Below, piece by piece: positions 2,540 through 64,000 of a stretch of DNA of 64,000 nt. The DNA lies in contig JAMOOB010000490.1 of NCBI GenBank assembly GCA_027066265.1, positions 3,111-67,110 on the forward strand. The letters run 5' to 3'. Source of the stretch: Desulfurococcales archaeon (lineage in GTDB: Archaea > Thermoproteota > Thermoprotei_A > Sulfolobales > Ignisphaeraceae). Each line of letters opens with the position of its first letter. Position 1 is the first letter of the stretch. Position numbers and translations under genes: made by a program. The notes beneath the pieces were generated by a model, which made no database searches, was not told where the DNA came from, and saw only the letters and a list, made by a program, of their open reading frames with translations.

Positions 2540-2706
2540 GGTATCACCCTTGCGTAATATCTATACTATGTCATGGGATACAGTATACCATGCATCTACG
2601 TAGCGTTAACGCTGCAGAAAGGCTCGCTACCACCGCTATCCCCGGGCTATAGAGGTATAGACGAGGCTATATCCTTGCCGCGCGCTCACAGCTGCGGGTG
2701 TAGCAC

Positions 2707-3831
2707 ATGCGTCTCCTGATCCTGGGGTGGGAGACGCCCTTCGTCTTCACGTACGGTGGTCTAGGCACGTTCCTGGAGCATCTGGGTAGAGCGCTGGATA
2801 GTATAGGTGTAGAGACGTGGTTCCTGGGCTGCATACCCGAGGGATGGGAGAGGAGGAGGGCTGAGCTAGGGTATGTCAGGAGCGTTGCGTGCTGCAGGGT
2901 TGTGGACCTGGGTAGGAGGAACGTTGCCGAGATAGCTAGGCAGATACTCGTGCATACGTACCACGCCGCGAAGCTCCTGAGGCCGGACGCCATCATCGCC
3001 AACGACTACCATACGGCGGTAGCGGTCGTAGCCGCGAACGAGCTCGAGATCCCGTTCATCTACTACCTCCACACCGCGTCGGTAAGCGGAGCCGAGCTGA
3101 TGGCTGTAAGGCTCGCGGAGGCTGTCGCCGCGAACAGTAAGATCAGTATGGATGCGGTGGAGACGATGCTGAGCATAACGCGGTTCGTCCACCCACCGCC
3201 GCAGCCACCCATCCTAAGAGTGATCCATCCTGCTGCACCACAGCTGTTCGCAGGTGATGAGGAGAGGGAGCTTGCGGAGAAGCTGAGGAGGTCTCTAGGT
3301 ACTAAGTACGTTGTTGGATGTGTAACGAGGAATCAGCCGAACAAGGGCTGGGATCTTCTGCTGAAGGCTGTGAGAGAGCTTAGGCGCGAGGGGCTGGATC
3401 TAGGTCTGGTGATGGGCGGGAGAGGTATCCCCCGCGCAGAGGAGCCGGGTATCAGGCTTCTTGGAGACCTCGACGAGAAGACGAAGATAGCTATCTACCT
3501 AGCCTCAGACCTCGTCGTATATCCATCGACCTACGAGCCATTCGGGCTAGTACCGCTAGAAGCTGCATACCTAGGCAAACCAGTTGCAGTGTCGAAGAGA
3601 TGCGGAGTTCTAGAGCTGCTGAGGTCCGCACCGAGCTTCGAGCCAACCGTTGAGGGAATAGCCAGCACTATCAAGAGGCTTCTGCTAGAGGAGGACCTCG
3701 AGAAGATAGCCAGCGCCGTCGCGGCGGAGGCTAGGTCTAGAACATGGTACGACGTAGCAAAGGAGCTTCTACAGCTCGTGAAGGATGCGCAGGCATACAT
3801 GCCTAGACACAGAGACGAGAACATCGTGTGA
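2707..3831 (+). CDS. glycosyltransferase, GT-B fold, family 4-like
   Basis: N-terminal MRLLILGWETPFVFTYGGLGTF and C-terminal YPSTYEPFGLVPLEAAYLGKPVAV (E-x7-E motif). TATA-like GCTATATCC at 2666-2674, palindrome variant at 2686. Confidence 0.85.
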   Translation: MRLLILGWETPFVFTYGGLGTFLEHLGRALDSIGVETWFLGCIPEGWERRRAELGYVRSVACCRVVDLGRRNVAEIARQILVHTYHAAKLLRPDAIIANDYHTAVAVVAANELEIPFIYYLHTASVSGAELMAVRLAEAVAANSKISMDAVETMLSITRFVHPPPQPPILRVIHPAAPQLFAGDEERELAEKLRRSLGTKYVVGCVTRNQPNKGWDLLLKAVRELRREGLDLGLVMGGRGIPRAEEPGIRLLGDLDEKTKIAIYLASDLVVYPSTYEPFGLVPLEAAYLGKPVAVSKRCGVLELLRSAPSFEPTVEGIASTIKRLLLEEDLEKIASAVAAEARSRTWYDVAKELLQLVKDAQAYMPRHRDENIV

Positions 3832-3856
3832 AGAAGCGCGTACACGAAGAGGCTTG

Positions 3857-3960
3857 GAGTGCACCACACGACCATAACCCTCCATTCCTGCGGGGGTTCT
3901 GCAACGTTCAGAGTGCACCTAACCACAACCAAACAATAGAGAAACACCGCGTTTCTTCGC
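3857..3960 (+). repeat. GTGCACC-box element, copy D
   Basis: AGTGCACC (3858) -N- CTCCATTCCTGCG -N- AGTGCACC (3912), then CAAACAATAGA. Lies 3' of the GT gene. Confidence 0.6.
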
Positions 3961-4155
3961 ATGTATACCCCCGCCGCAACTGAAAGTATTCTGCACATAG
4001 CTCTGAAGGACCCGATGTGTGCAACACCCACTGGTTTCGGGCACCCACAGCTGCAGACAAAGGTAGCTGAAGGAGGTGTCTATCCAGCCGAGCGAAAGAT
4101 AGCCGTGCCGGGCGCCCCATTAGAGATCGGTCGTGACCCCAGCTGTGGGGTGCGG

Positions 4156-4539
4156 CTACTCGCTGAACTTCTTCTCAAGGTGTCTAAACGGACATTCTTT
4201 CCAGTACTTTTCGCAGAGCTCGACATCCCATCGGGTTAGGTATGTTCCTCGCACCATGCAGTACACGACGAAGAAGCCGTCCTCGGTCTTCTCAACAGCT
4301 GCGTATTCGCATCCTATCTTGGGCTCCTTTGTCATGCCGGAGATGACGATGCACGGCTTTGTCCTTACGTACTCGGGCTTCTTCTTTCGCTGCTCCTGGA
4401 GCTTAGCTGGATCGACATAGTATGCACAGCTCCTGTACTGGTCATCGGATAGGCATCTCTGTGGAGAAACGACTAGGTCTGTAGCTGTTTCCAGAGCGGG
4501 TGAGGTGCACATACCGTCCCTGTACCAGGGGCACGGCAA
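4156..4539 (-). CDS. cysteine-rich hypothetical protein, possibly metal-binding
   Basis: 127-aa ORF with about 10 Cys (MPCPWYRDGMC..., LCEKYWKECPF). Confidence 0.6.
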   Translation of the reverse strand: MPCPWYRDGMCTSPALETATDLVVSPQRCLSDDQYRSCAYYVDPAKLQEQRKKKPEYVRTKPCIVISGMTKEPKIGCEYAAVEKTEDGFFVVYCMVRGTYLTRWDVELCEKYWKECPFRHLEKKFSE

Positions 4540-4553
4540 GGGTGGTCACCGCG

Positions 4554-8701: not shown

Positions 8702-8713
8702 CCACAGCTGTGG
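8702..8713. promoter_or_regulatory. CCACAGCTGTGG palindrome (perfect)
   Basis: Centred in the divergent intergenic region, about 55 nt from both starts (8646 minus, 8768 plus). Confidence 0.7.
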
Positions 8714-9556: not shown

Positions 9557-10198
9557 ATGAGCTGCCTCTACGGTTATATAGGTAGCGAAAACCAGGTCTG
9601 GACACAGGTGAAGAGAATGCAGATCCTCGTGGTGAAGAGGAGGCTCCCAGCTATGCAGCTGAGAGGGATAGTGCTCCCGACAGTACCGTCATCTCCACAG
9701 CTGTGGGAAAGACCTCGGCTGCAGCCCGAGCCAGCGCCTCAGCAGACACCGCAGCTACCCTCTGAAGAACCTAGCCAGGAGACTGCGCCGCCTCTCCAGC
9801 CCGAGAACACTGTTGTTTCTAGGCTTCCCGTCGGTGGAAGGACTGTTAGGGGTGTTGCTATCCGTAGGCTAGAGGTTGTTCCGGTGGATAGCTCTACCAT
9901 CAGGATCGTGATCGATATCGAGACCGGGGACACGTATGCGGATATCAGGGTGGGGTGCACCAGGGGAATCATAGACGTTAGCTCGGATAGAGCTGGTGGC
10001 GGAACGCTTCTTCCCGGGGAGGCTACTGGTACACTGGTTGTCCCGTATACTAGGGCGAGTATCGTGTACACCGTGAAGCTGGTGAAGGCTGTTAACGGCG
10101 CTGCAGAGGGGTTCGTCGAGGTGCGCGAGGTCGATTCGAGGGGAAGGGTGAGAAGGGTTCTTGCAAGGAGAAGCTTTGTGCTTAGAGCTGGAGCCTAA
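9557..10198 (+). CDS. hypothetical protein (P/Q-rich linker, then beta-rich domain)
   Basis: 213-aa ORF. TTATATA at 9586-9592 suggests a near-leaderless start at ATG 9617. A perfect palindrome (9695) lies in the 5' part. Confidence 0.5.
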   Translation: MSCLYGYIGSENQVWTQVKRMQILVVKRRLPAMQLRGIVLPTVPSSPQLWERPRLQPEPAPQQTPQLPSEEPSQETAPPLQPENTVVSRLPVGGRTVRGVAIRRLEVVPVDSSTIRIVIDIETGDTYADIRVGCTRGIIDVSSDRAGGGTLLPGEATGTLVVPYTRASIVYTVKLVKAVNGAAEGFVEVREVDSRGRVRRVLARRSFVLRAGA

Positions 10199-12115: not shown

Positions 12116-12119
12116 GGTG

Positions 12120-12560: not shown

Positions 12561-13318
12561 CTCTCACCACCCTCTCCAGAGACCTCCTCACCCTCCCTCC
12601 TCTCCACAGCTGGGGAGACGAGCTTGGAGAGCTCCTCGATCATAGCCTTCGCGCTAACGGTCCTCACGGTCATGAGGTTCGCAACGTATACAACCGTAGT
12701 CAGATCCCTATCCACGACAGCAGCCGCGTACTCGCAGATGGGGTGGACGCTGTCCGTCTCCAGCTCAAGCTCTCTGCCATCCGCAGCCCTCGCAACGTAT
12801 CCCCATCTAGAGGCTGATAGCAGCAGCGTAGGCAGCCTCCTCCCAGGTATACACTCCCCTCCTCCCTCCCAAGGAGTTCTCAGGTCGATCCTCATGGCGG
12901 AGTAAGCGGCTTGCGGCTGCACCTGCGCTACAACGACCATCGCTAGCGCATACCTAGATGCGTAGCTCCACACCCTCCTCAGCTCGTCTATAACAGCCTC
13001 GGCAGAGGGCTCGGTTGGCGGCAGAACTATCTGCACACCCCTAGCCGTCTCCATGAGTATCCTGGGCTGCCCTATCGCTACCATGCCCACAGCTGTGGGT
13101 ACGCGAACCGGCGCGCCCCTCGTCGTGATCTGGACTATCCTCACGGTGCTTCCGGCTCTATCCAGCCACGCAGCAGGTACTCCCAGACCATCGCCTAGGG
13201 CTAGCCTCAGCGCAGCCACAACGCATAGCTGCGGCGGTGCTGGCTCCAGCGATGCGTCTAGAACGATCCTCTCGACGGATAGCCCTCTACGGGGCTTCCT
13301 ACCGAGCAGCCTAACCAT
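12557..13318 (-). CDS. hypothetical protein
   Basis: 253-aa ORF. Contains an internal perfect palindrome (13087) followed by an in-frame ATG. Confidence 0.6.
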   Translation of the reverse strand: MVRLLGRKPRRGLSVERIVLDASLEPAPPQLCVVAALRLALGDGLGVPAAWLDRAGSTVRIVQITTRGAPVRVPTAVGMVAIGQPRILMETARGVQIVLPPTEPSAEAVIDELRRVWSYASRYALAMVVVAQVQPQAAYSAMRIDLRTPWEGGGECIPGRRLPTLLLSASRWGYVARAADGRELELETDSVHPICEYAAAVVDRDLTTVVYVANLMTVRTVSAKAMIEELSKLVSPAVERREGEEVSGEGGER

Positions 13319-18284: not shown

Positions 18285-18296
18285 CCACAGCTGTGG
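18285..18296. promoter_or_regulatory. CCACAGCTGTGG palindrome (perfect)
   Basis: Intergenic, 8 nt after the stop of 18304..18804 and upstream of the GT gene promoter. Confidence 0.7.
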
Positions 18297-18827: not shown

Positions 18828-19397
18828 CTACGTCATCTTGGGTGCTCCGGGCTTACCAGGTCCAACATGCTGTCCCTTAGGTGGTGTCACGATGATTGTT
18901 ACGTACTTGCTCCAGCTCGTCACGAACTTTGTGACCACAGCTGTGGACACATTTGTGATGCTTCTCGTGACCGTGGCTGTGGCTACATGCACTTTCGTGT
19001 ATGGGAAGATGTGGCTATAGATCCTGGTGTTCAGGAAGCATACTGTCCACAGGATGTACTCGGTTGCGACCGGTATCGTCTGGTACCTCGTTGCTACAAC
19101 TGTGTAGATATGCTTCGTAACGATTACCGAGACTATCCTCGTGACAACGACCTCTCTCTGCGGCTGCTTAGGCTGCGTAGAGGATGGGGGCGGTGTTCTT
19201 GGTTTGCTCTGCTCTCTCGGCTGTGTGGCTGGTGGTGTGGGAGGGACGATCCTTGGCTGCTCTGGCGCCTGTCTAGATACAGATGGTTGCTGGACAGCTA
19301 CTGTCTGGGGCTGCTTCTGGAGCTGCTGCGGCGTAATGTTGTACATCTGCATCAGCTTGCGTAGCGCTGGAGGTATCTGAAGGCTCGCCGACGTCAT
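18828..19397 (-). CDS. tetrad-repeat ([+]-x-[V/I]-[T/S]) family protein with P/Q-rich N-terminus
   Basis: 189-aa ORF with VVVTRIVSVIVTKHIYTVVATRY and STAVVTKFVTSWSKYVTIIVT. Confidence 0.55.
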   Translation of the reverse strand: MTSASLQIPPALRKLMQMYNITPQQLQKQPQTVAVQQPSVSRQAPEQPRIVPPTPPATQPREQSKPRTPPPSSTQPKQPQREVVVTRIVSVIVTKHIYTVVATRYQTIPVATEYILWTVCFLNTRIYSHIFPYTKVHVATATVTRSITNVSTAVVTKFVTSWSKYVTIIVTPPKGQHVGPGKPGAPKMT

Positions 19398-22800: not shown

Positions 22801-25800
22801 CCAGTCGTATAGGTGTGGAGCAATGGCATAGTTGTTCGCTAGGTATACGCTTCTTGCTCTGATGATCTGGTAGCTGTGTGGCGCTATGATCGCTACGATC
22901 CTGTATGTTCCGGCGGGCAGCTTCACGGTGTAGTCCTCGACAAGTCCAGCCGCATTCGTTGCATTAGCAACAACAGCCTCCTTCACGAGCTCTCCAGATG
23001 AAGCATCGTAGAACCTCACCACGGTTCCGAGCGGGAAGAACCTTAGGTGAACAAGGTTATCGCTGGAAGCGTTGTAGATGATCCACAGCCACCTCTCTTC
23101 TGCAGGAATCCTCTTAACATTACCATATGGTACACCATCGTTGTGGTGTTGTGATAGATCGATGTAGTGCGTTCCGTTGAAGAACGTTGGGTCTAGGAAC
23201 AGCGCTAGGTCTGATGCGTTTGCAGTATACACGCTGTTAATCTCGGTCTCGGTAAGAGCTCTGTTGAAGATTCTGACGAAGGCTATGAATCCATGACTAT
23301 ACCATCCACTTCTCCGCGAACCGATGAAGAGCGGGTTTCCAACGGGTAGCTTCGTCTCAATGTCAAGCGTTCTCGTACCGACATACGTAGAATCTACATA
23401 GACATCGAAGCGATCGACGAAGTAATTCACGGCTATGTATGTCCACCTACCGCTATGCTCATTCATAGAAACGGACATTTCCCCGTATGTATCACCGTTT
23501 CCAGTACCAATAACAATCGCATTCACATAAGCATGGGTCAAAAGCCAGAACCCCTTATTAGCATCGCGATCCCAGCTTACGATACCGCACCAGGGTTGTT
23601 GAAACGTATCGTATTTCACAAGCACTTCAACAGCGAAAGGAAGCGTAGTGATGGTGCTGAACGAAGGTACACTGACACGACTATTAACACCATCGAAGTA
23701 CCAGTCGTATAGGTGTGGTGCTATCGTGGTGTTTGGTTCTATGGCTGCTGTTGTCTCTATGGTTATGTTTGTTGGTAGGGGCATCACGGTGTAGTACGGC
23801 GTTGTTCTCTCGACGAGCTTTAGGAATGGCTGTATGTTGCCTATGTCCACAGCTGTGGCTAGATCGTATGGAACAGCAGCTGTGTATCTACCCGGTACGT
23901 ACCAGCCTATCGACAGATCAGCAGAGACGTACTCCCACCAGACGATCCCTCCGCTGCTCGTTCTCCACGTAGTGTCCTTCTCGCCCAGCTGACCGCTGTA
24001 TACAATGATCTGCGGCATAGATGGGTACTGACCGAATGGCGGGCCATTCACGTTGGAGCCGACGCTGGTGACGGGCGCTTCAACGACCACTGTATAGACA
24101 TCCTCTGGGAGCTGTATAGGCACATCGAGCTCCTCTACGAGACCGGCGGGGTTGGTGAAGCCGACAACCCTTATCCACGCAACTAGTGTTCCGCTCGAAG
24201 CGTTGTATATCTTAACAACGCTTCCGTATGGGAAGAACCTTAGGTGCAGATAGCTATCGCTGTAGAGACCGTATATCGTCCATAGCCACCTATCTTCGTC
24301 TAGAACCCTTACGACCGTACCGCGTATATTACCGACGAAATGTCTGGTGAGGTCTAGGTAGTGCGTACCGTTATAGAACGTCGGGTCGAAGAACAGGATA
24401 ACACTTCTGCTCACCGCATCTGGTATAGTATGGCTCTCGATGATCTCCCTAACGGTGTTGGCATCCAAAACAGTGTTGTTGACAAAGAGCAGGTATCTCC
24501 ATATGCTTGGATCCTGGTATCTAGTGGGTATCCAAGCATTATCCCAGTCAACATCAAAACCAATCTCTATGTAGTAGAAGAATACAAACCTTGTATATCC
24601 AGCATCCAACAAAGACACGTTGTCGATCTCGTTATTATCGATGTAGTACGTAATAGCGTTATCATAGTCATAGGCGAGAGCAAACTCGTTAGCTGGTGTA
24701 GAAGCCCATGGAAAGGCATAGATTTTGTCAGTGTATGGATCTCTTCCTGCAGCAGATCTGTATCCATACGGGTACACATCAATAACAAAGTAGCCATACC
24801 TTGCAGCAGTACGCATAAGGAATACACACCGGCTATCTGATGACATTGGGTATACGGATACTATCATTGTGAACGATTTTGCATAGACAGCTGGAGTAAA
24901 CTCAACTCTATTTGCATCAATATGCGGTGTATGTGCGTACGGAGGTACGTAGAGCTTGTATATGTGTGGCACTATCGTTGTTCCTGGTTTGAGTGTTGCG
25001 TTCTGTGTGATTGTTACCCACTGTGTTGTTGGTTTCCATGAGGTGTCTGGCTGTATCCTGTAGACCTCTATGGATGTGGGTGACTCGAAGCTCGCTGTCT
25101 TTTCCACAGCTGTGGGCTCTACCCTGTAGCTCGTATACGGGTTGTCCTGCCCGTAGAGCATGTAGATTGTCTTGGTCTGTCCCGCTCCTATCGATATGTA
25201 GACGGCTGCGTCGAGCACCCTCTCTGTCTTGGATAGGTAGAGGACGCTGTAGTTCAGCGGCTGTAGTGTTGCTGCGTCCAGGAAGTAGATGTCTGTACCG
25301 TCCTTGATGCTGCTCCAGTCGGCGAAGTTGGTGTTGTCTAGGTGGATATGTACCCAGCCGGTGTAGTCTACGGGGCTGTACAGCGTGATCGCTAGACCTG
25401 TTCTCGCTCCTCTCAGCAGCCAGATCGCTACGACTCTAGGCTCGTAGCTAGTGTTGAAGATCGCGAGGCTCCCCGCATCTAGCTGGAGCTGGCTCTGCGC
25501 AACCGTGTACCTGCCGTATATCGTCCAGTACCCGGTCTCGTAGTCGAAGTCGTCGTAGGCTGCGAACAGCGGTGAGGTCGATGGTGTCGCTACGTACTCC
25601 GGGTACGGGTTGGTGCCCCCGTAGAACACGTTGTATATCTTCTGACCGGCTGCACCCTCCACCCACAGCACGAAGGGTGGGTAGCTGGAGAACAGGTAGC
25701 TGTAGTACGGCTGACCCTGCTGATCAACCACGTAGGTGTTGAGGTAGCTGAGCAGGTTGGGGTCGGAGACGTTGAGCGGAGCTCCGTAGATCGCTAGCTG

Positions 25801-27657: not shown

Positions 27658-27742
27658 GTTCTACCCCAAGACAAGAGAAGGAAAAACAAGTTTTTAGAGG
27701 TAGCGCATACCAAGCCCACAGCCGTGGAAAAGGGGGATGGGG

Positions 27743-28186: not shown

Positions 28187-28248
28187 AGCATTTATACATA
28201 TCGCTCCTATACTACCCGAAGAAACGTAGCTACAGCTGTGGAAATGGC

Positions 28249-31621: not shown

Positions 31622-31633
31622 CCACAGCTGTGG
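31622..31633. promoter_or_regulatory. CCACAGCTGTGG palindrome (perfect)
   Basis: Intergenic, upstream of gene 30761..31540. Confidence 0.7.
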
Positions 31634-32228: not shown

Positions 32229-32240
32229 CCACAGCTGTGG
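32229..32240. promoter_or_regulatory. CCACAGCTGTGG palindrome (perfect)
   Basis: In the divergent region between 31672..32037 (minus) and 32365..33348 (plus). Confidence 0.7.
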
Positions 32241-33348: not shown

Positions 33349-33360
33349 CCACAGCTGTGG
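33349..33360. promoter_or_regulatory. CCACAGCTGTGG palindrome (perfect)
   Basis: Starts immediately after the TAG stop (33346-33348) of the RHH gene, in a convergent junction. Confidence 0.7.
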
Positions 33361-33836: not shown

Positions 33837-33906
33837 CTAAGAGGATATATGCGTAGCGAAGGAGAGTATGCTTTGTCCACAGCTGCGGGATAAGAAAAAG
33901 GTTTGG

Positions 33907-34405: not shown

Positions 34406-34417
34406 CCACAGCTGTGG
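34406..34417. promoter_or_regulatory. CCACAGCTGTGG palindrome (perfect)
   Basis: Intergenic, upstream of the CGCTACGCATATAT box of 33907..34377. Confidence 0.7.
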
Positions 34418-34856: not shown

Positions 34857-37800
34857 TAGAGCACCACCCGCTCGCCCACCCTACCCTTCCTCCATACCCT
34901 TCTTATCCTCGGCACAGCCGCGACCATAGGTAGGCTAGGCGGTCTCGAAACCCTCCTCACCCTGGGCAGCCTTCTCCACGACAGCCACACCTCGTCTAGA
35001 ACCGGAACAACCTCCGTAACCTCCTCGAGAACCGGCTGAGTAACGACAACTACGACTCCCTGCGTAGACTCCTCGGTGCCTACGCTCGTGCACCTGCTGA
35101 GCTCGGTGAGAGACGTTGACCTCGTCGTTGTGCTCACCTTCTGCGTATCTGTAACCTCCCTGTTGACCACCTCGAGCTCTATATCCGTTGTCTCCTCCCT
35201 CGGTATAGACGTGCTCCTGCTCTGATCGATCGGCGATACCGTTGACCGCCTCCTGCGGAACACAACGACGTCCGGTCTGACAATCGTTGCAACGATATCT
35301 ATATCCCTCTCCACCAGCTTGCTTCCATACCTCCTCAGCTCATCTGCAAGCTCAACGACTAGGCGCCTAGCGAGCCTATCGTACCTAGCATCGTCTACCA
35401 TCTTGACCAGCCTCTCGGCAACAACCTTGATATCTCTTTTGCTAGCCACATCCTTCTCCACAGCTGTGGACTCAGACCTTGACTCCACCTCGCTTAGACC
35501 GAGAGTGCTCCTAAGGATCTCATCCACCGTCTTCTCATGCTTCTCGGCGACGACGCTGATGCTCCTCCTCGTCTCCACATCCTCATCGATGCTACGCTCC
35601 TTAGCGAGCTTCGTAAGCCTATCGATGCCCAGCGTCTGCTTGACTACCCTATCGATAGACTTCAGATGCTTTTCGGCAACAACATTGATGCTGCGATCCG
35701 TCTCCGCAGCTGTAGGTAGCTCGCTCTCCTTAGTGAGCCTCTCGCGCTCTAGCATCGGCAGGGTCTTCCTCAAGACCTCGTCTACCTGCTTCAGACGCTT
35801 CTCGGCAACAACATCGATGTTCCTCTTGGTCTCCACAGAAGCGTCCAGCTCTCGCTCCTTAGCAAGATGCTTCCTCTCGGTCAGCCTCTGCGTCTCTCTA
35901 AGAACCTCGTCAACGGTTTTGAGGTGCTTCTCAGCAACAACGCTGATAGTCCTCTTGGTCTCGACCTCTTCACCAACGTTGTTCTCTCTAGACAGCTTGG
36001 TGATGCGGTCTATGTCCTGTCTATGCCTGAGAACCTCGTCAACGGTCTTCAGATGCCTCTCGGCAACTACGTGGATATCTCTCCTGGTGGTGACGTCTGC
36101 GCTGAGAGACGTCTCTTTGCTGAGCTTCGTACGCTGCGTCTCTCTGAGTATATGCCTAACTACTCTGTCTAGAACCTGGGTCATGACCGTTCCTACAACG
36201 TTTATCGCCGTATCTATCCTAGCGATAGCGTTGAGAACCCTGTACCTCGCCTCCTGCATCGGCAGGGTCTCGCTCATGGATGTAGAGGTAATGGTCTCGG
36301 CGGTAACGACCCTGTTCACGACCCTGTTGATCGATAGGAGCAGACTCTTCAGCTGAGCGAGATCGATAATCGTCTTCTGCAGGTAGTCGGCTAGCTGCTG
36401 AAGACCCTCGTCCTGAAGCTCCTCCGCGGCGGTCTCGATGCTCTGCTTGGCTTGCTGGAGCTCCGCTATAACCCTATCGATATCGATCCTCTTACCGACC
36501 TCCAGGCTGATGCCGTACTGCTTCAGAGCCTCCGCAACGCTCTTCAGCTCCTGCATAGCTACGGCGCTCCTACCGACAGCCTCACCAACCTTCTCGCCCC
36601 TCTCCGCGCGCTGTATCGCGCTCTCTATCTGGCTCGGCGTGGCGGCTACAACGCCGAGGATTGTAACCGTGGTTCCCTCCGGATCGCTCACCGGCATAGG
36701 TACGACAACAGATCCCCTACGCGTTGTGGTAACCATGGACTCCAGGAGCTTTCCTAGCTCCACCGCGGTCTCGGGCTCGGTCTTAGCCGCGGTCTCGACG
36801 ATCTGCTTCACGTACTGGGCAGCCTCGTCGAGCCTACGCTTCGTGACGGCGTCCACGAACTTCCTGAAGTACGGCTCTATCTCTCTCCACAGATCCCTCG
36901 ATATCATCACCTTCTGCCTGATCGTGTAGTAGATGTCGCCGACCTCTCCGCTCGGCTTCGTTTCGGCAACGACTCTCTGAACCATCGTCGAGACGATCCT
37001 GTCGTCGACGCTCCTCCCTGTTACGTACTTCAGCAGCTCGGCTATCCTCCCCCTGCCCACAGCTACGGTAACGACCCTCCCCTCAGCCGGCTTGATCAGA
37101 AGCGTCGACTCCTCGAGGAACACAGGGTACGGCGCCGAGAGAGCCTCCTCAACAGCCTTAGCGTTCGTTATCCTGAGATCGTCTAGGTGCTGCTCGAGCC
37201 ACCTAACGACATCCCTCATCTGCTTGAGCACGCCCCTCTCCTTGAGGACCCTGTAGAGCGCTACGGACAGCGGTATGTTCTCCTTCTTGGCGAGCTCGTC
37301 GGCAGCCTCGATAAGCTTGGGGTCTAGCCACACCCTGGGCGCAGCTGTGGGATCGGCCGGTATCTGGAACCTCAGTATCCTTCCGTCTACAGCCACCTCG
37401 AGATCGATGAACTTATCGCTCTTCGCAGGTATAGCGACGGTCTTGACCTTGGTTCCGCTGATGTAGATCGGTCTACCGCTCCTAATCGCGTCCTCTAGAG
37501 CCTGGAGGAACTCCATCTGGCTCCTCGTTTCGAGAGGTATCTGGTAGACGATCTCGAGGAGGTTCTGGATCTCCTCCGGCTTGAGGTTCCTCTTCGCTAT
37601 GTACGCAAGGATCTGGTGAGCAGCGTAGTTCTCGTCACCGACCTTAACGACGCGCGACAGCTTCATCGCCGCGTTCTTCAGCATCTCTACGGGTATCTTG
37701 GCGTAGGGCTTGATCTTACCCGCCTCCTCGTAGAATATCACAACGTATGTCCTCCCCGTGCTCGGGTCGTAAACCGTGTCGAAGAACTTCGTCTCGACTC

Positions 37801-39119: not shown

Positions 39120-39794
39120 CTACCTACCGACCGCGGCGAGGATGATGCCCACCAGGAACGCTATAGCGGTTATCAGCTCGCTTATGTTTGGAGGGATGCC
39201 GAACGCCTCCAGTATCGGTAGATACATCATCGATACGGCTGCTAGAGCGGCTCCAGCTATCCTCGTTGATGGTCTTAGGGCTACGCATATCAGAGGAGAT
39301 GCGGCGGCTATCATAAGCAGTAGAGCGGATACCGGGCTGATGCTCGATACGTCGAACGCGCTCTTCTGCACCTTCGCAACCGCGTACGGACCGTACTCGA
39401 AGCCGTTGACGGTCAGCCTGATCACCAGGTAGCTGTAGCCAGACACAGGGACAACGACGGTCGCTACCTCTCCGCCAGCGAGATCGAGGCTCTTCGCAAC
39501 AACCCGCTCACCGCTCGGAGCATCCACCTCCAGACTAACGTTGCACCCGCTGCTCTCGAAGCACGTTATATCTACGTACAGACCGCTATCGTTCAGAACC
39601 GCAAACATGGTTGCAAACGGGCTTCTAGCCTCCTTCACCACCGGCAAACAGATGAACTCACCCGAAGCGTTGTAGACGAAGCTACCGGGCGGACACTCCA
39701 TATCCACAGCTGTGGTCACGGTATCGGCGAGAACCGTAGCCGCAGCTGCGGGTATGAAGAGTACAGCAACGAGCACGAATAGAGCTAGACGCAC
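39120..39794 (-). CDS. secreted/membrane-anchored protein
   Basis: Signal-like MRLALFVLVAVLFIPAAAA and C-terminal TM segments. A perfect palindrome (39704) lies in the 5' coding part. Confidence 0.6.
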   Translation of the reverse strand: MRLALFVLVAVLFIPAAAATVLADTVTTAVDMECPPGSFVYNASGEFICLPVVKEARSPFATMFAVLNDSGLYVDITCFESSGCNVSLEVDAPSGERVVAKSLDLAGGEVATVVVPVSGYSYLVIRLTVNGFEYGPYAVAKVQKSAFDVSSISPVSALLLMIAAASPLICVALRPSTRIAGAALAAVSMMYLPILEAFGIPPNISELITAIAFLVGIILAAVGR

Positions 39795-43356: not shown

Positions 43357-43613
43357 CACCACACCTAGATGACATTGATATCCCCACAGCTGAGGTAAAG
43401 ATGTATCGGAACAGGTACGTAACCCGTCGAGAGGGTCTATGATCATCGTTGCGTCTCGCATCTTTTAGCTTCTCCATGTGATAAGCAGCTGTAGCGGGGA
43501 ACGGCACTATGTTGGATCCCCATATAATCGAGCTCAAAATGCTTGAGGAGATCGAGGATCTCATCGAGGAGATCTACCAGGTGGACGCTGTGATTCCTGC
43601 GGCGGGCTGATCC

Positions 43614-44595: not shown

Positions 44596-44597
44596 CC

Positions 44598-44609
44598 CCA
44601 CAGCTGTGG
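44598..44609. promoter_or_regulatory. CCACAGCTGTGG palindrome (perfect)
   Basis: Lies 2 nt upstream of ATG 44595, in a 30-nt junction with no TATA. Confidence 0.7.
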
Positions 44610-44874: not shown

Positions 44875-44886
44875 CCACAGCTGTGG
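44875..44886. promoter_or_regulatory. CCACAGCTGTGG palindrome (perfect)
   Basis: CCTTTTTCTCGTCT-palindrome-GGATAACGG-GTG. Confidence 0.7.
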
Positions 44887-45483: not shown

Positions 45484-45495
45484 CCACAGCTGTGG
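45484..45495. promoter_or_regulatory. CCACAGCTGTGG palindrome (perfect)
   Basis: Lies 21 nt after the stop of the TFB-like gene. Confidence 0.7.
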
Positions 45496-46977: not shown

Positions 46978-46989
46978 CCACAGCTGTGG
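46978..46989. promoter_or_regulatory. CCACAGCTGTGG palindrome (perfect)
   Basis: TTTT-palindrome-GGATGTGCG-ATG of the 51-aa zinc-ribbon ORF, at the head of the TFB module. Confidence 0.7.
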
Positions 46990-48386: not shown

Positions 48387-48398
48387 CCACAGCTGTGG
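48387..48398. promoter_or_regulatory. CCACAGCTGTGG palindrome (perfect)
   Basis: Lies 6 nt after the stop of 48405.. and 28 nt upstream of ATG 48358. Confidence 0.7.
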
Positions 48399-50004: not shown

Positions 50005-50084
50005 GTAGAACCCCAGCCCACTCCCTAGCGCGGAAGCGGAAAAAGAGGGGTTGTGACGCAGACCGCAGCTGTGGATAGGAGCAG

Positions 50085-50417: not shown

Positions 50418-50675
50418 TTACTCCTCGTATAGCACAGCTCCGAACCTCAGGATCGAGCTGATTACATCTAGCAGCTCGTCTACGTCTATAGAGAGCTCGA
50501 TGCCGTCTACACGTATGCTACACCCACAGCTGTGGAGATCTATACGAATACACCTAGCGGCGAACCCGCTTGAAGCAAGCACAACGCTGCTGAGGATACC
50601 GCTGTGAAACTCTACCTCTATATCGAACAGCTTCCCATCGAGAACGGCTACCCATCGATGCCTCTCGAACACCAA
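50418..50675 (-). CDS. small hypothetical protein
   Basis: 85-aa ORF with TTG/GTG start after CCCCACAGCTGGGGTTTTGA. Contains an internal perfect palindrome (50524). Confidence 0.4.
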   Translation of the reverse strand: MVFERHRWVAVLDGKLFDIEVEFHSGILSSVVLASSGFAARCIRIDLHSCGCSIRVDGIELSIDVDELLDVISSILRFGAVLYEE

Positions 50676-50787
50676 TCAAAACCCCAGCTGTGGGGTGTTA
50701 AGTGATGTTTGAGATATGAGATATGACATGTGAACCACGAAAATGGTGTGTCTCCCCAGAGCTATGGGTGTAAAGGGGGTAAAAGTT

Positions 50788-51525: not shown

Positions 51526-51605
51526 TCCGATCCCCAGAGACTGTAATTGTTAGTACCACACAGCACGAGACAGTTCAGTTCTCGTCCCCACAGCTGTGAA
51601 AAAGG

Positions 51606-52564: not shown

Positions 52565-52576
52565 CCACAGCTGTGG
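52565..52576. promoter_or_regulatory. CCACAGCTGTGG palindrome (perfect)
   Basis: Lies 12 nt downstream of CTTATAC and 8 nt upstream of ATG 52556. Confidence 0.7.
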
Positions 52577-52812
52577 AAACAAGATACAGTATAAGGACGG
52601 GGGTTGTGGACTGAAGAATGTCTGGTGTTTTGTGATTAATGTTAATTGTTAACTCTTGTTGATTGATAGTCGATGTCCACTGATATTTTGAAGCCCCAGA
52701 TGTAAAAGTGGTTTAGGTACATACGATTAGTGTCGCTGCAGATCTTCGTCAGCGCGATTCCTGGGTTCGGCGTTTCCACCTCTCCACCTCCGCAGCTGTG
52801 GAGACGAAAATG

Positions 52813-53739: not shown

Positions 53740-53751
53740 CCACAGCTGTGG
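53740..53751. promoter_or_regulatory. CCACAGCTGTGG palindrome (perfect)
   Basis: TTTTT-palindrome-GGAT, upstream of the RAMP-like gene. Confidence 0.7.
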
Positions 53752-54059: not shown

Positions 54060-54092
54060 TTCTTGCCCCCAGCTGTGGAAAAAGCTGTAGGG

Positions 54093-55450: not shown

Positions 55451-55462
55451 CCACAGCTGTGG
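55451..55462. promoter_or_regulatory. CCACAGCTGTGG palindrome (perfect)
   Basis: Lies 8 nt upstream of the VWA gene ATG 55442. Confidence 0.7.
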
Positions 55463-57350: not shown

Positions 57351-57362
57351 CCACAGCTGTGG
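57351..57362. promoter_or_regulatory. CCACAGCTGTGG palindrome (perfect)
   Basis: TTTT-palindrome-GGATCTCC-ATG 57342. Confidence 0.7.
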
Positions 57363-59204: not shown

Positions 59205-59465
59205 TCAGAGAAAGACAGGCAGACACCTAACACAGATATACATAGTATCATCGACATTTACACACGCGTTATCGCGCTCCTCAAGAAGCTTGAGGAGCTT
59301 CTCTAGCTCCCTCTCCTCAACGGAATTAATAGTTGCACGAATAGCATTCCCTAGCTGCTGTAGCGAAGCAACAGCAACAACCTCACAATCGCATGGACTT
59401 GATATACCTGTTAATCTATCGTAACAAACACTGCACCTCTCAATGATATACAGCTCCAACTTCAT
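59205..59465 (-). CDS. small Cys-rich protein
   Basis: 86-aa ORF with CSVC...CDC...CVRC. Confidence 0.5.
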   Translation of the reverse strand: MKLELYIIERCSVCYDRLTGISSPCDCEVVAVASLQQLGNAIRATINSVEERELEKLLKLLEERDNACVNVDDTMYICVRCLPVFL

Positions 59466-59517
59466 ATTTCAATACCCCAGCTGTGGTTATGGTAGAACCC
59501 CCAAAGAAAAACGGTGT

Positions 59518-60088: not shown

Positions 60089-60421
60089 TTATCGACTAAG
60101 AAGTTTGTTGACAAATACCTCGAACTCATTGGGAGTCATCTCGGCAGTTATCTCCACTTCGCCACCAGAAGTGATGGATACAACGTAGATGTAGAGGTAG
60201 TGCGTAGCTCCACAGGTACCACATTTTACGTACTTGATAACCTCGTTGATATCTGCCCTAAACACCTCTACTCTTCTGCTGAGTCTATCTACAACTATGA
60301 CCTCATCAGTTTCACTAGCGTTAACTATGGCTACATAGTCGTCGTCCTTAATAGCGTTGACTACCCTAAAAACGATGTTTAGTGTATCGAGATCTAGCTC
60401 TGCAACACGAATCATTTCCAT
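60089..60421 (-). CDS. small hypothetical protein
   Basis: About 108-aa ORF containing KCGTCGATH. Palindrome variant CTACAGCTGTGG directly upstream. Confidence 0.5.
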   Translation of the reverse strand: MEMIRVAELDLDTLNIVFRVVNAIKDDDYVAIVNASETDEVIVVDRLSRRVEVFRADINEVIKYVKCGTCGATHYLYIYVVSITSGGEVEITAEMTPNEFEVFVNKLLSR

Positions 60422-60449
60422 TCCCCACAGCTGTAGAGAAGGGAGAACC

Positions 60450-61932: not shown

Positions 61933-61944
61933 CCACAGCTGTGG
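61933..61944. promoter_or_regulatory. CCACAGCTGTGG palindrome (perfect)
   Basis: Lies between the GC-rich island with its promoter and the GGCTCGCA array. Confidence 0.7.
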
Positions 61945-61995: not shown

Positions 61996-62408
61996 GGTTC
62001 GCACTATTCTCGTGGGCACGGTCTTTCGGCTCGCATGGACTCGCTCCGCATGCTAAACGGGGCTCGCATATCCTCCCTCTACACGCGAGTTCGGTTCGCA
62101 CACGGTTTCGCCACACGGTTCTACGGATCCGCACGCGAGATCTCTACACCTCGTCTCCGGCTCACATGAGTAGGCTCGACACGAGCAAATGGTTCACACG
62201 AAATCTATCAACATATCTCGGCGGTTCGCATCCGCATAAAGTTTCTCCATATCGAGCAAAGCCTCGCGGCTCGCACAGTAAACCTACCCAGGGTCTTCTC
62301 GGCTCGCACACCTCTTCTGCGCACAGGAGACCTCGGCTCGCATCGGAACTCTTCCCAGGCCGGAGCCGGCTCGCAACGCAGTCCTGCACATTCATCGAGG
62401 TGCTCGCA
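61996..62408. repeat. 13-unit array of GG(C/T)TCGCA boxes with ~32-33 bp period
   Basis: Boxes at 61996, 62028, 62061, 62093, 62125, 62159, 62191, 62223, 62268, 62301, 62335, 62368 and 62401. The intervening ~23-nt segments are unrelated. Confidence 0.75.
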
Positions 62409-62416
62409 CAGGGGGT

Positions 62417-63337
62417 CTAGAGAGCTTGGGTGGCTTCGGCCCTCCTCTCGATCGCTAGGGGCACCTCCCTGCCCCGCGCGACGACGATTATCGGCGGGTA
62501 GTACATGTTCCTGATCCCGGCGAAGACCACGTACGGCGGTCTGTACGGCAGGCCCAGGATCGCGCAGTAGGCCTCGTAGTACTGCGAAAGCCATACCTTG
62601 GCCACGAGGCGGTACGCTCTGAGCGTAGCGTGCGACACTATAGACGACATCAGCTCCCTAGCCCTAGACCTGGTCACCGAGACGCCGAGGCTCTTAAGAG
62701 CCTCGGCAAACCCATCAACGTCCCTGCTCCTAGCAGCCGCAGCAACAGCCCCAACCCTATCACCGTCGATGGCATCGACGGCTGTACCCAGGTACCTACC
62801 GAGCTTCTGCGGAACGAGCTTCCTGATCTCCCGCTCCAGCCACTCCTCGAAGAGCGACCTGTAGAACCTGACGTTCCTAACCAGCTGCCTAGCGATCTGC
62901 CCCGTCACAGCCTTGCAGATCCTGTGGTAGCACTCGGCGCTACCGCACTTCTCGACGTAGTACTCCCTCGGCGCCCATCCGCACCACGCCCACAGCTTGC
63001 TAACGGTCTGAAACCTCCACGGATGGATGTTCCCTAGAACCAGACCGCTCAGCACAGTACCCAGCCCAGGAAGGTACCTGAGGTACTGCTGGTACACCGG
63101 GTGCCGCCTAACGAGAGGCTCCATCAGCTCCTCGAGCTTCTCCTTACCCATCTCAGCAGCCCTAACGATCTCCGGCGTCAGCTCGCACGGAAAGCCCTGC
63201 TCCCTACACACCTTCGCATAGAAGTTCTTGTAGCTCTGAACACGCTTCCTCTGGATCCAGTACAGACGCGAAACCTCGTAGAGCCTCATCTCGATAGACC
63301 TAACCGACTCGGGACAGCGAGACCAGTCGATGGGCAT
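62417..63337 (-). CDS. protein with IS110-family Transposase_20-like (HhH) segment; no obvious DEDD domain
   Basis: YLRYLPGLGTVLSGLVLGNIHPWRFQTVSKLWAWCGWAPREY resembles the IS110 L.iPGiG...a..l.aei.d..rF.s...l.ay.Gl.P signature. GGTGGAGGG lies before the ATG. Confidence 0.5.
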   Translation of the reverse strand: MPIDWSRCPESVRSIEMRLYEVSRLYWIQRKRVQSYKNFYAKVCREQGFPCELTPEIVRAAEMGKEKLEELMEPLVRRHPVYQQYLRYLPGLGTVLSGLVLGNIHPWRFQTVSKLWAWCGWAPREYYVEKCGSAECYHRICKAVTGQIARQLVRNVRFYRSLFEEWLEREIRKLVPQKLGRYLGTAVDAIDGDRVGAVAAAARSRDVDGFAEALKSLGVSVTRSRARELMSSIVSHATLRAYRLVAKVWLSQYYEAYCAILGLPYRPPYVVFAGIRNMYYPPIIVVARGREVPLAIERRAEATQAL

Positions 63338-63396
63338 AGCCCTCCACCGCTTCTCCAGCTATAAAGCACAGAGAATATAAGGTCTTTAGCATTGGT

Positions 63397-63408
63397 CCAC
63401 AGCTGTGG
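63397..63408. promoter_or_regulatory. CCACAGCTGTGG palindrome (perfect)
   Basis: Lies about 60 nt upstream of the IS110-like gene ATG 63337, with TATA-like CTTATATTC in between. Confidence 0.7.
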
Positions 63409-63661
63409 AGAGGGATAGAACGATGTGTAGCGCCAGAGACACACGTGTTCCACTATATACAGCGGTGTTACAGCTGTAACTATCGAGGAGATGAATAGCG
63501 GTAGACGAGGTTAAACCTCGTAGCACGGGTATCTGCACGGGAGTGGAGCCGTGTCCGCGAGAAGCATAGTCAAGCCGGTATGCATCGTGCTGGCGATATG
63601 CATAGCTACGGGTATCGCGGATATCGTGATAGACATCCTTTCGCGGTCTAGCGGTGCAGAC

Positions 63662-64000
63662 ATGTTCGCTGCTAGGATGGATAGCTATGACGATGTGCCG
63701 AACATCATTTCCACAGCTGTGGACAGCTGCTATATGTGTCCGCGCAGCGGTGATCCGCTTGATCTGGCTATGAAGGTGCTTCTCCGGTACAGGTACTGTC
63801 TGCACTACCCCTTCGACGAGGTGTGGCTGCCGATGACGGTGGCGATGACGAGGTGCGGAACATGTATGGACCTAGCGCTGATGCTGGTAGCGTCGGAGAT
63901 ATCCTCTGGTCACGAAGCGCTTCTGCTGCTGATCGACACCGGAGAGGAAGAGATCGGGCATGCAGCTGCGGCTATCAGGACGAGCAGCGGGTGGATCGTT
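63662..64000 (+). CDS. partial CDS, possible transglutaminase-like/papain-fold Cys peptidase
   Basis: Open frame from ATG 63662 (or ATG ~63733 just after the palindrome) to the window end. RCGTCMDLALMLVASE...IGHAAAAI looks like a Cys...His core. Confidence 0.35.
   Translation, partial: MFAARMDSYDDVPNIISTAVDSCYMCPRSGDPLDLAMKVLLRYRYCLHYPFDEVWLPMTVAMTRCGTCMDLALMLVASEISSGHEALLLLIDTGEEEIGHAAAAIRTSSGWIV

Follow-up and report, generated by a model that had tools for sequence, protein, structure and literature searches.

The DNA analysed here, hereafter called the window, is a stretch of 64 kb from a Desulfurococcales archaeon (assembly GCA_027066265.1, contig JAMOOB010000490.1, positions 3,111 to 67,110), and the feature under study is a perfect 12-bp palindrome, CCACAGCTGTGG, which recurs throughout it. 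The window represents 64 kb out of a circle of about 71,470 bp: the replicon is taken to be circular because a single contig of the European Nucleotide Archive (ENA) bridges the window end to the window start with 7,470 extra bases (L070:1868-9337; L numbers are our contig handles). Contigs of ENA assembly ERZ27262656 and of Logan assembly SRR7968125, retrieved by exact-protein look-ups, are collinear with the window at 99.7-100% identity; a 72.2-kb contig at NCBI and JGI is also among the look-up results. All coordinates refer to the window unless marked 'replicon'; replicon-only coordinates above 64000 fall outside it.

The GC content of the window is about 55%, most of its genes lie on the minus strand and its proteins are nearly all orphans. 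Those that could be recognised comprise a 2060-aa protein with concanavalin/LamG domains, an SF2 helicase, a CDC48-like AAA ATPase, MoxR and VWA proteins, three GT4 glycosyltransferases, a TFIIB/TFB paralog, a DUF5131 protein and an IS110-like protein. The 7.47-kb segment beyond the window adds a serine recombinase (resolvase), a nucleotidyltransferase of the CCA-adding/polyA-polymerase type with an HD domain, and five further perfect palindromes. The giant protein and the AAA ATPase are similar to ORF1767 and ORF506, respectively, of Hyperthermophilic Archaeal Virus 2 (HAV2) from Yellowstone, and the IVYWREL fraction of the proteome, 0.481, is typical for hyperthermophiles, so that the composition of the proteome indicates a hyperthermophile. 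Scans of the window for tRNAs and Rfam families gave no matches, nor did a megablast of 20 kb against phage and plasmid collections, and the 1403-aa and 413-aa proteins retrieved nothing but themselves in word-indexed protein searches.

Twenty-six perfect copies of the palindrome are present in the window, vs. none expected from 100 dinucleotide-preserving shuffles. With up to two mismatches, the number of sites rises to 59 (26 perfect, 21 with one mismatch and 12 with two), vs. 3.25 ± 1.79 expected, and the whole circle carries 31 perfect, 22 one-mismatch and 13 two-mismatch copies. No other k-mer of the window is strongly over-represented. These counts bear out the original prediction, made from the letters of the window alone, which had held the abundance of the word to be beyond chance and had placed all 26 perfect copies exactly. 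Some of the imperfect copies that it listed lie 1-10 nt away from the positions given: 6298 becomes 6299, 14121 becomes 14120, 16448 becomes 16438, 52789 becomes 52790, 54068 becomes 54067 and 59476 becomes 59475.

Sequence conservation stops at 12 bp, nothing being conserved beyond. The core is CACAGCTGTG, and positions 3 and 10 tolerate change, the commonest variants (position 3/10) being CCNCAGCTGNGG. Around the circle of about 71.5 kb, the density is of the order of one site per 1.1-2.3 kb, and the copies are spaced more evenly than at random, with a coefficient of variation of 0.69 vs. 0.97 (p = 0.003).

The position of the copies was analysed against the gene calls stored with the public contigs (89 genes and the giant gene), which were mapped onto the circle and are independent of our own choice of open reading frames (ORFs). 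Coding sequence makes up 86.8% of the replicon, yet 21 of the 31 perfect copies are found in the 13% that is non-coding. For the window, about 19 of the 26 perfect copies had been predicted to be intergenic or within the start of an over-extended ORF; by the independent calls the figure is 17, of which 16 are intergenic and one (55451) is of the second kind. The prediction that most junctions between 43 and 58 kb carry a copy holds (roughly 13-14 of 21), as does that of copies directly past stop codons, e.g. 33349, 28230 and 48387 (0, 7 and 6 nt, respectively).

As a positional control, the 34 intergenic copies with at most one mismatch were randomly placed within intergenic DNA in 5000 runs. 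Eleven copies lie 6-9 nt before a start codon (class 1; 1.1 expected), ten lie 58-66 nt before one (1.3 expected) and ten lie within 7 nt past a stop codon (1.9 expected), and for each of these positions none of the 5000 runs reached the observed number. The start distances of 8-9 and about 60 nt remain constant across intergenic regions of 23 to 550 nt and are thus not a side effect of tight gene packing. The copy at replicon 67934 is situated 60 and 64 nt from two divergent starts. Concerning convergent genes, five of the eight non-overlapping junctions carry a copy, and in two pairs the 12-nt gap between the stops is exactly the motif (replicon 64593 and 68534). The enrichment near starts therefore survives both proper gene calling and a control confined to intergenic DNA, and the general proposal of a non-random cis-element that runs across the replicon and is concentrated at gene junctions is supported.

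The 58-66 nt class is accompanied by a promoter-like element, CGCTAC followed after 1-3 nt by TATAT or TAAA, which lies between the palindrome and the start, the palindrome being located 11-20 nt, and once 35 nt, upstream of it. Eight of about 15 such CGCTAC-TATA promoters have an adjacent copy, seven with the palindrome 11-35 nt upstream and one, 2686, with the palindrome just downstream of the TATA box. The promoter role is played by a separate CGCTAC-TATA element and not by the palindrome, whose two distance classes, presence at convergent junctions and 28 intragenic copies do not fit a core promoter element. The original prediction had the palindrome begin 11-12 nt downstream of a TATA-like box, over the expected transcription start. 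The two examples offered are right (GCTATATCC before 2686 and CTTATAC before 52565 on the minus strand), but they are also the only two copies identified between a TATA-like box and a start, and they are outnumbered by the 10-11 copies at 58-66 nt, upstream of the promoter, while others are convergent or intragenic.

The CGCTAC-N1-3-TATAT/TAAA consensus itself is found in about 15 genes, roughly 30-40 nt before the start codon (Table 1). CGCTAC occupies the place of a TFIIB recognition element (BRE), although it is unlike the canonical purine-rich BRE, and it could be a target of the replicon's own TFB paralog.

Translation signals divide the replicon into modules. At 1-43.5 kb and 61-71.5 kb, 44 of the 63 genes have GGTG or GGAGG before the start, whereas at 43.5-61 kb the signal is GGGG in 23 of the 27 genes. 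In this latter module, on the minus strand, the usual form before most genes is (A)ACAC(C)..TTTTT(N)TTTGGGG(G)AT-N4-5-ATG, and its T-run and GGGG(G)AT occur with or without the palindrome. The extended consensus TTTT-palindrome-GGAT of the original prediction is therefore a composite of two elements. Class 1 is almost confined to this module, where the palindrome is found between the T-run and the G-run, and its 3' GTGG together with GG furnishes the G-run, which resembles a Shine-Dalgarno element. The 8-9 nt spacing is accounted for by this sharing, which does not explain the palindrome itself. Modules with GGTG and with GGGG translation signals contain the palindrome at the same frequency, which argues for selection on the replicon as a whole.

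The 43.5-61 kb module houses the TFB paralog, MoxR and VWA genes, and its GC content falls to 0.47 at 56-60 kb. The existence of two translation signals suggests either a mosaic origin or a separately controlled module.

Inside genes, 28 copies with at most two mismatches were counted, 25 of which share the frame xCC-ACA-GCT-GTG-Gxx, i.e. [S/T/P]-Thr-Ala-Val-x. Among the 18 Thr-Ala-Val tripeptides of the proteome, eight are spelled ACAGCTGTG, vs. 0.36 expected on the basis of codon usage, in which ACA is a minor codon for Thr, and the intragenic copies are built with rare codons. The giant gene carries five copies and the 1403-aa gene four, at about the genome-wide density, in agreement with the copies previously noted inside these two long ORFs. 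In two alignments with syntenic homologues from contig L076, no 4-codon (12-bp) insertion is seen, and the clearer one shows that the site was made by substitution. The bias to one frame, the rare codons and the origin by substitution together imply that the word is selected at the DNA level. This selection at the nucleic-acid level acts everywhere, and the word is put in non-coding DNA where possible.

Relatives of the replicon were sought through the 413-aa P-loop ATPase encoded at 712-1953(-), for which a HMMER scan gave a family of 76 representative metagenomic sequences. The contigs with close members share several genes with the window at 30-50% protein identity. Four of them, L076, L078, L079 and L080, as well as HAV2, have neither a copy of the motif nor a substitute hyper-abundant palindrome, and L075 has one copy. 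A second route went through the motif itself. Exact 17-mer scans of GTDB genomes and of metagenomes of the Joint Genome Institute (JGI) gave only single matches per locus; in the 185,579 species genomes, the matches to this 17-mer, which covers the class-1 context only, were about as many as by chance and none was clustered. Counting the 12-mer in the matched loci led to L062, L067 and the pair L043/L055. Each of these contigs was ascertained through one copy, and their additional copies are far beyond chance. L062 (ATPase 24% identical) has three perfect copies in 9.3 kb, one of which is arranged as stop, 4 nt, motif, 64 nt and ATG of the ATPase gene. L067 (GC 41%) has three copies in 5.9 kb and has a glycosyltransferase, a 224-aa protein and a resolvase in common with the window; both are distant members of the same family as the window. 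The metagenomic contigs L043 (1-8421) and L055 (1-5192), with a GC content of 66-68%, show no detectable protein similarity to the window, and in L043 the core CACAGCTGTG occurs ten times in 8.4 kb, mostly as GCACAGCTGTGC. IMG/VR, scanned for exact 16-mers and 14-mers, yielded only unrelated single matches or conserved phage coding sequence, and the 42 IMG/VR loci fetched via the AAA ATPase were generic, with no copy of the core.

As side observations on these relatives, one core copy of L043/L055 (6355) follows directly on an A-rich box and precedes an ATG by 2 nt, and three are inside one 702-aa gene. HAV2 (L004) has an intergenic inverted-repeat unit of its own, (A)CTGAAAGCCTCGCCCTTTAGGGCGGGGAGGAGGTCAGA, in at least four copies (3016-3060, 6680-6725, 7161-7200 and 8900-8950), two of them around an ISDka2 insertion. 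The 413-aa P-loop NTPase has no Pfam model, weak nSTAND3 matches being confined to distant family members, and has the appearance of a hallmark gene for this group of archaeal elements from hot springs.

A perfect palindrome with one tolerant position per half-site, selection at the DNA level, sites at junctions and inside genes, even spacing and quantised positions all point to a dimer acting on double-stranded DNA. From the abundance, positions, frame bias, codon cost, even spacing and absence of stable structure observed here, we infer that CCACAGCTGTGG is the binding site of a symmetric, dimeric, sequence-specific protein at transcription-unit boundaries, the sites forming an operator/roadblock ('stoperator-like') array; we give this reading a probability of roughly 0.5. 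The gene for the factor would probably lie on the replicon itself or be one that moves along with replicons of this kind. Its sites would be selected all over the circle, preferentially where they are cost-free and where transcription units meet: past stops, upstream of CGCTAC/TATA promoters, in the interval between TATA and start in two cases, in the gap between T-run and G-run inside operons, and in convergent gaps, while in long genes they would be introduced by synonymous recoding. With the factor present, all unit boundaries would be occupied, the sites serving as operator and as roadblock or insulator, and the element would be silenced or kept compartmentalised as a whole; with the factor absent, the sites would be neutral. 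Such a conditional silencer would explain why intragenic copies are tolerated and even favoured, which a constitutive terminator would not. The proposal thus agrees with the broad form of the first alternative of the original prediction, an operator bound by a dimeric factor; for its second part, use together with the TFB paralog, this paralog is an unlikely reader of a palindrome.

Several candidates for the reader were considered. Pfam scans gave only weak zinc-ribbon, C2H2 and BED-like matches, and no ribbon-helix-helix (RHH), helix-turn-helix (HTH), DNA methylase or restriction enzyme domain. The 166-aa protein of 18304-18804(-) is modelled as two winged helices joined by a long helix, with a predicted local distance difference test (pLDDT) score of 87, and is on this basis a candidate DNA-binding factor; Foldseek found no match for the model at E ≤ 0.001, only weak ones to BusR, MarR and PadR. 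For the 139-aa HTH/zinc-finger candidate, the model (pLDDT 47) is unusable. The C2H2 zinc-finger protein of 47801-48358(-) is a weak candidate for the motif reader, judging from its finger CPxCGxxFxSxxALxxH, which is shared with the motif-bearing contigs L067 and L048 and is found in no motif-free relative; the lead is weak, given the fragmentary contigs and the frequency of such fingers in crenarchaeal viruses. Further candidates are the proteins of 46397-46816, 28970-29356 and 32365-33348 and an RHH-like 85-aa protein at replicon 71221-71478.

Some points weigh against a dimer-bound array. Neither the Pfam scans nor the structure models identified a binding protein, and 12 bp is short for two HTH domains and a better fit for RHH, MetJ-like or other compact readers. 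From palindrome to promoter, the distance is not constant (11-20 nt, once 35), and a fixed TBP/TFB geometry is not evident. The closest sampled relatives (L076, L078-L080 and HAV2) lack both the motif and a substitute, and there is thus no evidence of co-evolution between site and regulator of the kind known for stoperators and their repressors. Finally, the motif may be a host-wide word or the site of a host factor.

Dispersed operator-like words are already known in bacteriophages and plasmids, and the concept is not unprecedented. Cluster A mycobacteriophages such as L5 and Bxb1 carry up to about 30 copies of one 13-bp stoperator across the genome (PMC6550527), and two reports describe one repressor that acts at the operator of the early promoter and also blocks elongation, silencing the whole prophage (PMC6550527, PMC9283540). 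The replicon resembles them in its 31 perfect and 53 at-most-one-mismatch copies on 71.5 kb, of which 21 of the 31 perfect ones are intergenic, and this is the mechanistic model that we favour. Stoperators, which are mostly found in short intergenic regions, are asymmetric, read by a monomer and oriented with transcription, whereas the present word is a perfect palindrome whose asymmetric flanks belong to the separate T-run/GGGGAT start motif. Moreover, stoperator motifs track the divergence of the repressor, whereas here the closest relatives are without the motif and the distant L062 and L067 have the identical word; the RNA polymerase is, furthermore, archaeal.

Cluster O mycobacteriophages have 34 invariant 17-bp palindromes per genome, 5'-TGTTCGGNNNCCGAACA, in a mixture of intergenic, 5'-proximal and intragenic sites, for which the authors propose binding by a dimeric protein, the function being unproven (Cresawn et al. 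2015, PMC4351075). By an analogy of kind, the replicon shows the Cluster O pattern: one dyad-symmetric word is present in over 30 invariant copies per genome, and the sites are of the same mixed types; a word without occurrence in the other genomes examined is part of this likeness. The two words are unrelated in sequence, that of Cluster O being built as 7+3+7 bp with a spacer vs. a continuous 12-bp palindrome here, and both the Cluster O host and its transcription machinery are bacterial. No two-peak rule of start distances has been reported for Cluster O, whereas the present copies have quantised positions and a strict frame and codon signature inside genes.

The KorA/KorB operators of IncP plasmids and the conserved inverted repeats (CIRs) of Streptomyces phage phiC31 are palindromes of 12-17 bp with 7-18 copies per mobile replicon at varied promoter distances, through which a replicon-encoded dimer exerts global control; these systems are bacterial and their regulators have been identified. 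They differ from the present array in having fewer copies, with few or none inside genes. The start-associated sequences of Cluster K mycobacteriophages consist of a conserved word a few nt upstream of many starts that includes the ribosome-binding site, and are comparable to the class-1 copies plus the T-run-GGGGAT motif of the 43.5-61 kb module. They are reportedly asymmetric and restricted to starts, whereas the palindrome also occurs about 60 nt upstream, past stops, at convergent junctions and inside genes. Other hyper-abundant words are highly iterated palindrome 1 (HIP1) of cyanobacteria, the uptake sequences of Neisseria and Haemophilus, and the repetitive extragenic palindromes and bacterial interspersed mosaic elements (REP/BIME), of which HIP1 and REP are palindromic and which are tolerated in benign coding frames. 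They are chromosomal, with thousands of copies, and REPs are longer, structured and spread by RAYT transposases, whereas the word studied here belongs to a 71-kb extrachromosomal element; we know of none among them with a fixed distance to the start codon.

A literature search gave no description of the 12-mer, or of an equivalent array in an archaeal element, and nothing of relevance under the sample accession. What is new is the archaeal hyperthermophile context, the continuous perfect palindrome, the two-position rule, the codon-level signature of selection and the core shared by very divergent replicons. Replicons with 24-31% protein identity or none, and with a GC content from 41% to 66-68%, are enriched in the identical core, while closer relatives are without it. 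We tentatively put forward, as a possibility held less firmly than the dimer-bound array itself, an archaeal counterpart of the stoperators, in which the dimer would read the palindrome at about half of the unit boundaries and inside long genes, switching or insulating the element, and in which the pair of factor and site would be mobile or ancient.

The regulation of large viruses and plasmids of hyperthermophilic archaea is almost unknown, and a single word at quantised positions offers a direct experimental handle: one oligonucleotide could fish out the cognate factor, and one transcriptome with transcription start sites and 3' ends could show whether RNA polymerase is blocked or directed at the sites. 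Should the stoperator-like model be correct, it would extend genome-wide silencing by roadblocks to the archaeal, eukaryote-like transcription machinery, and genetic tools for thermophilic archaea would gain an operator that is compact and portable. Since the core recurs in very divergent contigs, it also offers a marker for related elements, and perhaps for their hosts.

Concerning the alternatives, the one that survives best, while still unlikely, is a 'self' word that acts on DNA outside transcription, being bound by a protein responsible for condensing, packaging, segregating or protecting the replicon, in the manner of matS, SlmA/Noc sites, uptake sequences, Chi or HIP1. The preference for junctions would then only reflect where a 12-mer can be placed cheaply. 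The nearly constant density, including inside the 6.2-kb and 4.2-kb genes, the spacing more even than random, the intragenic copies in one frame and in rare codons, the occurrence across modules with different translation signals and the core common to replicons of GC 41% to 66-68% all agree with such a word, and uptake sequences in coding DNA likewise keep to one frame and use rare codons. The replicon thus displays the high, fairly even density and the frame-biased intragenic copies of a genome-wide self word, but this feature does not discriminate, because silencer sites predict the same. The sharp peaks at 6-9 and 58-66 nt, however, persist in long intergenic regions, where placement is free; in addition, one copy sits midway between divergent starts, there is an association with CGCTAC/TATA promoters, and no packaging, partition or restriction-modification genes were recognised.

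An element that acts in the transcript is improbable. Such an element, in essence the second alternative of the original prediction, would be a short hairpin serving as a mark for the cleavage of polycistronic transcripts or for the formation of their 3' ends, or else hiding the neighbouring Shine-Dalgarno-like G-run. The bare palindrome forms a hairpin with a 4-bp stem and a 4-nt loop, with a predicted stability of -3.5 kcal/mol at 37 °C and 0 at 75 °C, and would not remain folded at the temperature inferred for growth. With the sense-strand flanks (U-run and GGAU), G-U pairs lengthen the stem to 7 bp, which brings it to -7.1 kcal/mol at 37 °C and speaks for an RNA element, as do the class-1 copies, which directly precede the G-rich element on its 5' side at 8-9 nt from the start, and the copies past stops and at convergent junctions, where terminators are expected. 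The extended hairpin nevertheless retains only -1.4 kcal/mol at 75 °C and -0.35 at 85 °C, in an element whose proteome indicates a hyperthermophile, and the T-run and GGGGAT flanks exist without the palindrome. Furthermore, the A3-U10 pair is broken on the sense strand in 10 of the 16 position-3/10 variants, and stem-breaking variants still hold canonical positions (e.g. 54067, 59475, 50682 and 4137). Selection favours the intragenic copies, although a signal for cleavage or termination would do harm there, and no Rfam family matches the window. The palindrome thus lacks the stable, compensatorily conserved stem-loop of a terminator or processing site, and the zero stability at 75 °C, the stem-breaking variants and the selected intragenic copies disfavour the hairpin.

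Recombination at cassette boundaries, the last of the earlier alternatives, has little in its favour and is to be ranked slightly lower again. The copies would be crossover sites of a site-specific recombinase or hotspots for the exchange of modules between co-infecting relatives, and they do lie at gene boundaries of a mosaic replicon, in which two modules have different translation signals and a serine recombinase is encoded next to a perfect copy. Deletions between repeat copies have, in addition, been seen in Cluster O phages (PMC4351075). The resolvase is, however, also present in the motif-free L078 and L079, no motif copy coincides with either end of the block that is syntenic with L076 (about 10182-14869), and the ENA and Logan contigs are collinear with the window; 12 bp is also short for a serine-recombinase crossover site, and the 28 intragenic copies are not at cassette boundaries. 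On a limited sampling of breakpoints, all off the motif, this alternative finds no support. The contig breaks of the assemblies were also considered as signs of recombination at the motif, and their positions do not coincide with it.

The least probable explanation is a functionless by-product, be it a mobile 12-bp insertion similar to a miniature inverted-repeat transposable element (MITE), a mutational or gene-conversion bias, or a chance word around the G-rich translation signal: the 3' GTGG of class-1 copies plus GG doubles as the pre-start G-run, and several class-1 junctions resemble a palindrome-ended segment inserted between T-run-GGGG and AT-N4-ATG, but conservation does not reach beyond 12 bp, the intragenic copy arose by substitution where the homologue aligned clearly, the copies use rare codons against the codon bias, and the same word is present in GGTG modules and at convergent junctions without a nearby start. 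An inserting mobile 12-bp unit was discarded on the homologue alignments, which are without insertion, and a REP/BIME or MITE-like nature likewise, on the length of only 12 bp, the origin by substitution in the clearly aligned homologue and the absence of HUH or RAYT-type transposase domains in Pfam scans.

The individual copies and the other located features are compiled in Table 1.

Table 1. Copies of the palindrome and associated features of the replicon (T-A-V frame, the Thr-Ala-Val reading frame described in the text)
Feature	Position	Match	Context
Palindrome	278..289	1 mismatch	intragenic, T-A-x frame
Palindrome	2686..2697	2 mismatches, TCACAGCTGCGG	9 nt before ATG of glycosyltransferase gene 2707-3831(+); 11 nt after GCTATATCC; operator-like position
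Palindrome	4137..4148	1 mismatch	7 nt past stop of 4156-4539(-)
Palindrome	8702..8713	perfect	intergenic, 64 nt before start of 7453-8637(-)
Palindrome	9695..9706	perfect	inside 9617-10198(+), rare frame (PQLW)
Palindrome	13087..13098	perfect	inside 12557-13318(-), T-A-V frame; L076 homologue: substitution, not insertion
Palindrome	18285..18296	perfect	7 nt past stop of 18304-18804(-); 66 nt before ATG of glycosyltransferase gene 16950-18218(-)
Palindrome	18935..18946	perfect	inside 18828-19397(-), T-A-V frame
Palindrome	23847..23858	perfect	inside giant gene 19807-25989(-), T-A-V frame
Palindrome	25104..25115	perfect	inside giant gene 19807-25989(-), T-A-V frame
Palindrome	27716..27727	1 mismatch	15 nt past stop; 58 nt before ATG of 26809-27657(-); 11 nt upstream of GCTAC-TAAAAA
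Palindrome	28230..28241	1 mismatch	7 nt past stop of 28249-28899(-); 73 nt before next ATG
Palindrome	31622..31633	perfect	38 nt past stop of 31672-32028(-); 81 nt before ATG of 30761-31540(-); GCTAC/TATA in between
Palindrome	32229..32240	perfect	within 650-nt repeat-rich non-coding region
Palindrome	33349..33360	perfect	convergent: 0 nt past stop of 32680-33348(+), 26 nt past stop of 33387-33812(-)
Palindrome	33877..33888	1 mismatch	18 nt past stop; 64 nt before ATG of 33387-33812(-); 19 nt upstream of GCTAC-TATAT
Palindrome	34406..34417	perfect	7 nt past stop of 34425-34856(-); 61 nt before ATG of 33907-34344(-); 17 nt upstream of GCTAC-TATAT
Palindrome	35458..35469	perfect	inside 1403-aa gene, T-A-V frame
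Palindrome	39704..39715	perfect	inside 39120-39794(-), T-A-V frame
Palindrome	43384..43395	1 mismatch	27 nt before called ATG of DUF5131 gene 42625-43356(-)
Palindrome	44598..44609	perfect	16 nt past stop; 8 nt before ATG of 44314-44589(-); T-run / palindrome / GGAT
Palindrome	44875..44886	perfect	24 nt past stop; 9 nt before GTG of 44626-44865(-)
Palindrome	45484..45495	perfect	21 nt past stop of TFB paralog gene; 72 nt before ATG of 44911-45411(-)
Palindrome	46978..46989	perfect	9 nt before ATG of Zn-ribbon gene 46813-46968(-)
Palindrome	48387..48398	perfect	6 nt past stop of 48405-49181(-); 28 nt before ATG of C2H2 zinc-finger gene 47801-48358(-)
Palindrome	50063..50074	1 mismatch	10 nt past stop; 58 nt before ATG of 49816-50004(-)
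Palindrome	50524..50535	perfect	inside 50418-50675(-); only frame-2 copy (HSCG)
Palindrome	50682..50693	1 mismatch, sense strand CCACAGCTGGGG	6 nt before start of 50418-50675(-)
Palindrome	51588..51599	1 mismatch	6 nt past stop of 51606-52556(-); 62 nt before ATG of 50788-51525(-)
Palindrome	52565..52576	perfect	8 nt before ATG of 51606-52556(-); CTTATAC 12 nt upstream; operator-like position
Palindrome	52790..52801	1 mismatch	in 550-nt intergenic region upstream of 51606-52556(-)
Palindrome	53740..53751	perfect	47 nt past stop; 9 nt before GTG of 53107-53730(-)
Palindrome	54067..54078	1 mismatch	14 nt past stop; 7 nt before ATG of 53799-54059(-)
Palindrome	55451..55462	perfect	8 nt before in-frame ATG of VWA gene; database start TTG 55475 places copy in codons 5-8
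Palindrome	57351..57362	perfect	22 nt past stop; 8 nt before ATG of 56890-57342(-)
Palindrome	59475..59486	1 mismatch	31 nt past stop; 9 nt before ATG of 59205-59465(-)
Palindrome	60425..60436	1 mismatch	9 nt before ATG of 60089-60415(-)
Palindrome	61933..61944	perfect	in 749-nt convergent gap, 60819-61667(+) / 62417-63337(-)
Palindrome	63397..63408	perfect	divergent region; 59 nt before ATG of IS110-like gene 62417-63337(-)
Palindrome	63711..63722	perfect	inside 63551-64303(+), T-A-V frame
Other intragenic palindromes	7244, 12604, 14120, 16438, 21033, 26937, 31150, 42481	1 mismatch	last one in a doubtful 68-aa ORF
TFB paralog gene	45517-46374		
Resolvase (serine recombinase) gene	replicon 69265-69939		perfect palindrome copy 3 nt past its stop
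Genes with CGCTAC consensus, start codons	~2539(-), 2707(+), 9539(-), 19716(-), 27657(-), 29672(-), 30048(-), 31540(-), 33812(-), 34344(-), 40181(-)		
Genes with CGCTAC consensus, start codons	replicon 64350(+), 66065(-), 66949(-), 68006(+)		

Two further explanations of the word were tried and rejected. Avoidance of a PvuII-type restriction site does not apply, CAGCTG being the most abundant 6-bp palindrome of the replicon, and a replication-origin element similar to an origin recognition box (ORB) is at odds with copies that are dispersed and not clustered, no Orc1/Cdc6 gene being found.

The largest non-coding stretch contains degenerate tandem arrays at 32036-32214 and 32523-32728, made of ACCTACT repeated about 25 times and GGTACCCAAGTC about 15 times, respectively. 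The palindrome at 32229 lies between both arrays, and those at 31622 and 33349 flank them. A replication origin or a set of iterons may be located here; another possibility is that the second array codes for the G-T-rich N-terminus of a longer 327-aa ORF, 32365-33348. The ENA copy of this region differs from the window by 32 nt of indels.

As for the other genes, small proteins composed of (I/V)T(K/R)(H/Y)VT-like repeat units, with a very high content of Thr, Val, Ile and Arg, are encoded at 19408-19716, 29761-30048, 30107-30355 and replicon 64350-64592, with weak homologues in L075 and L067. Two pairs of paralogous genes lie far apart, 72-362(-) with 26574-26834(+), and 49248-49838(+) with replicon 66359-66949(-). 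The members of the second pair have a common N-terminal 'ELTE.E.R.L..W...RPNRYDIPGVDTP' region, for which there is a further match in a segment of a 467-aa protein of L078 and a weak one in the C-terminus of the helicase. Finally, the IS110-like protein of 62417-63337(-) gives a weak Transposase_20 match, and palindromes are located at 61933, 63397 and 63711.

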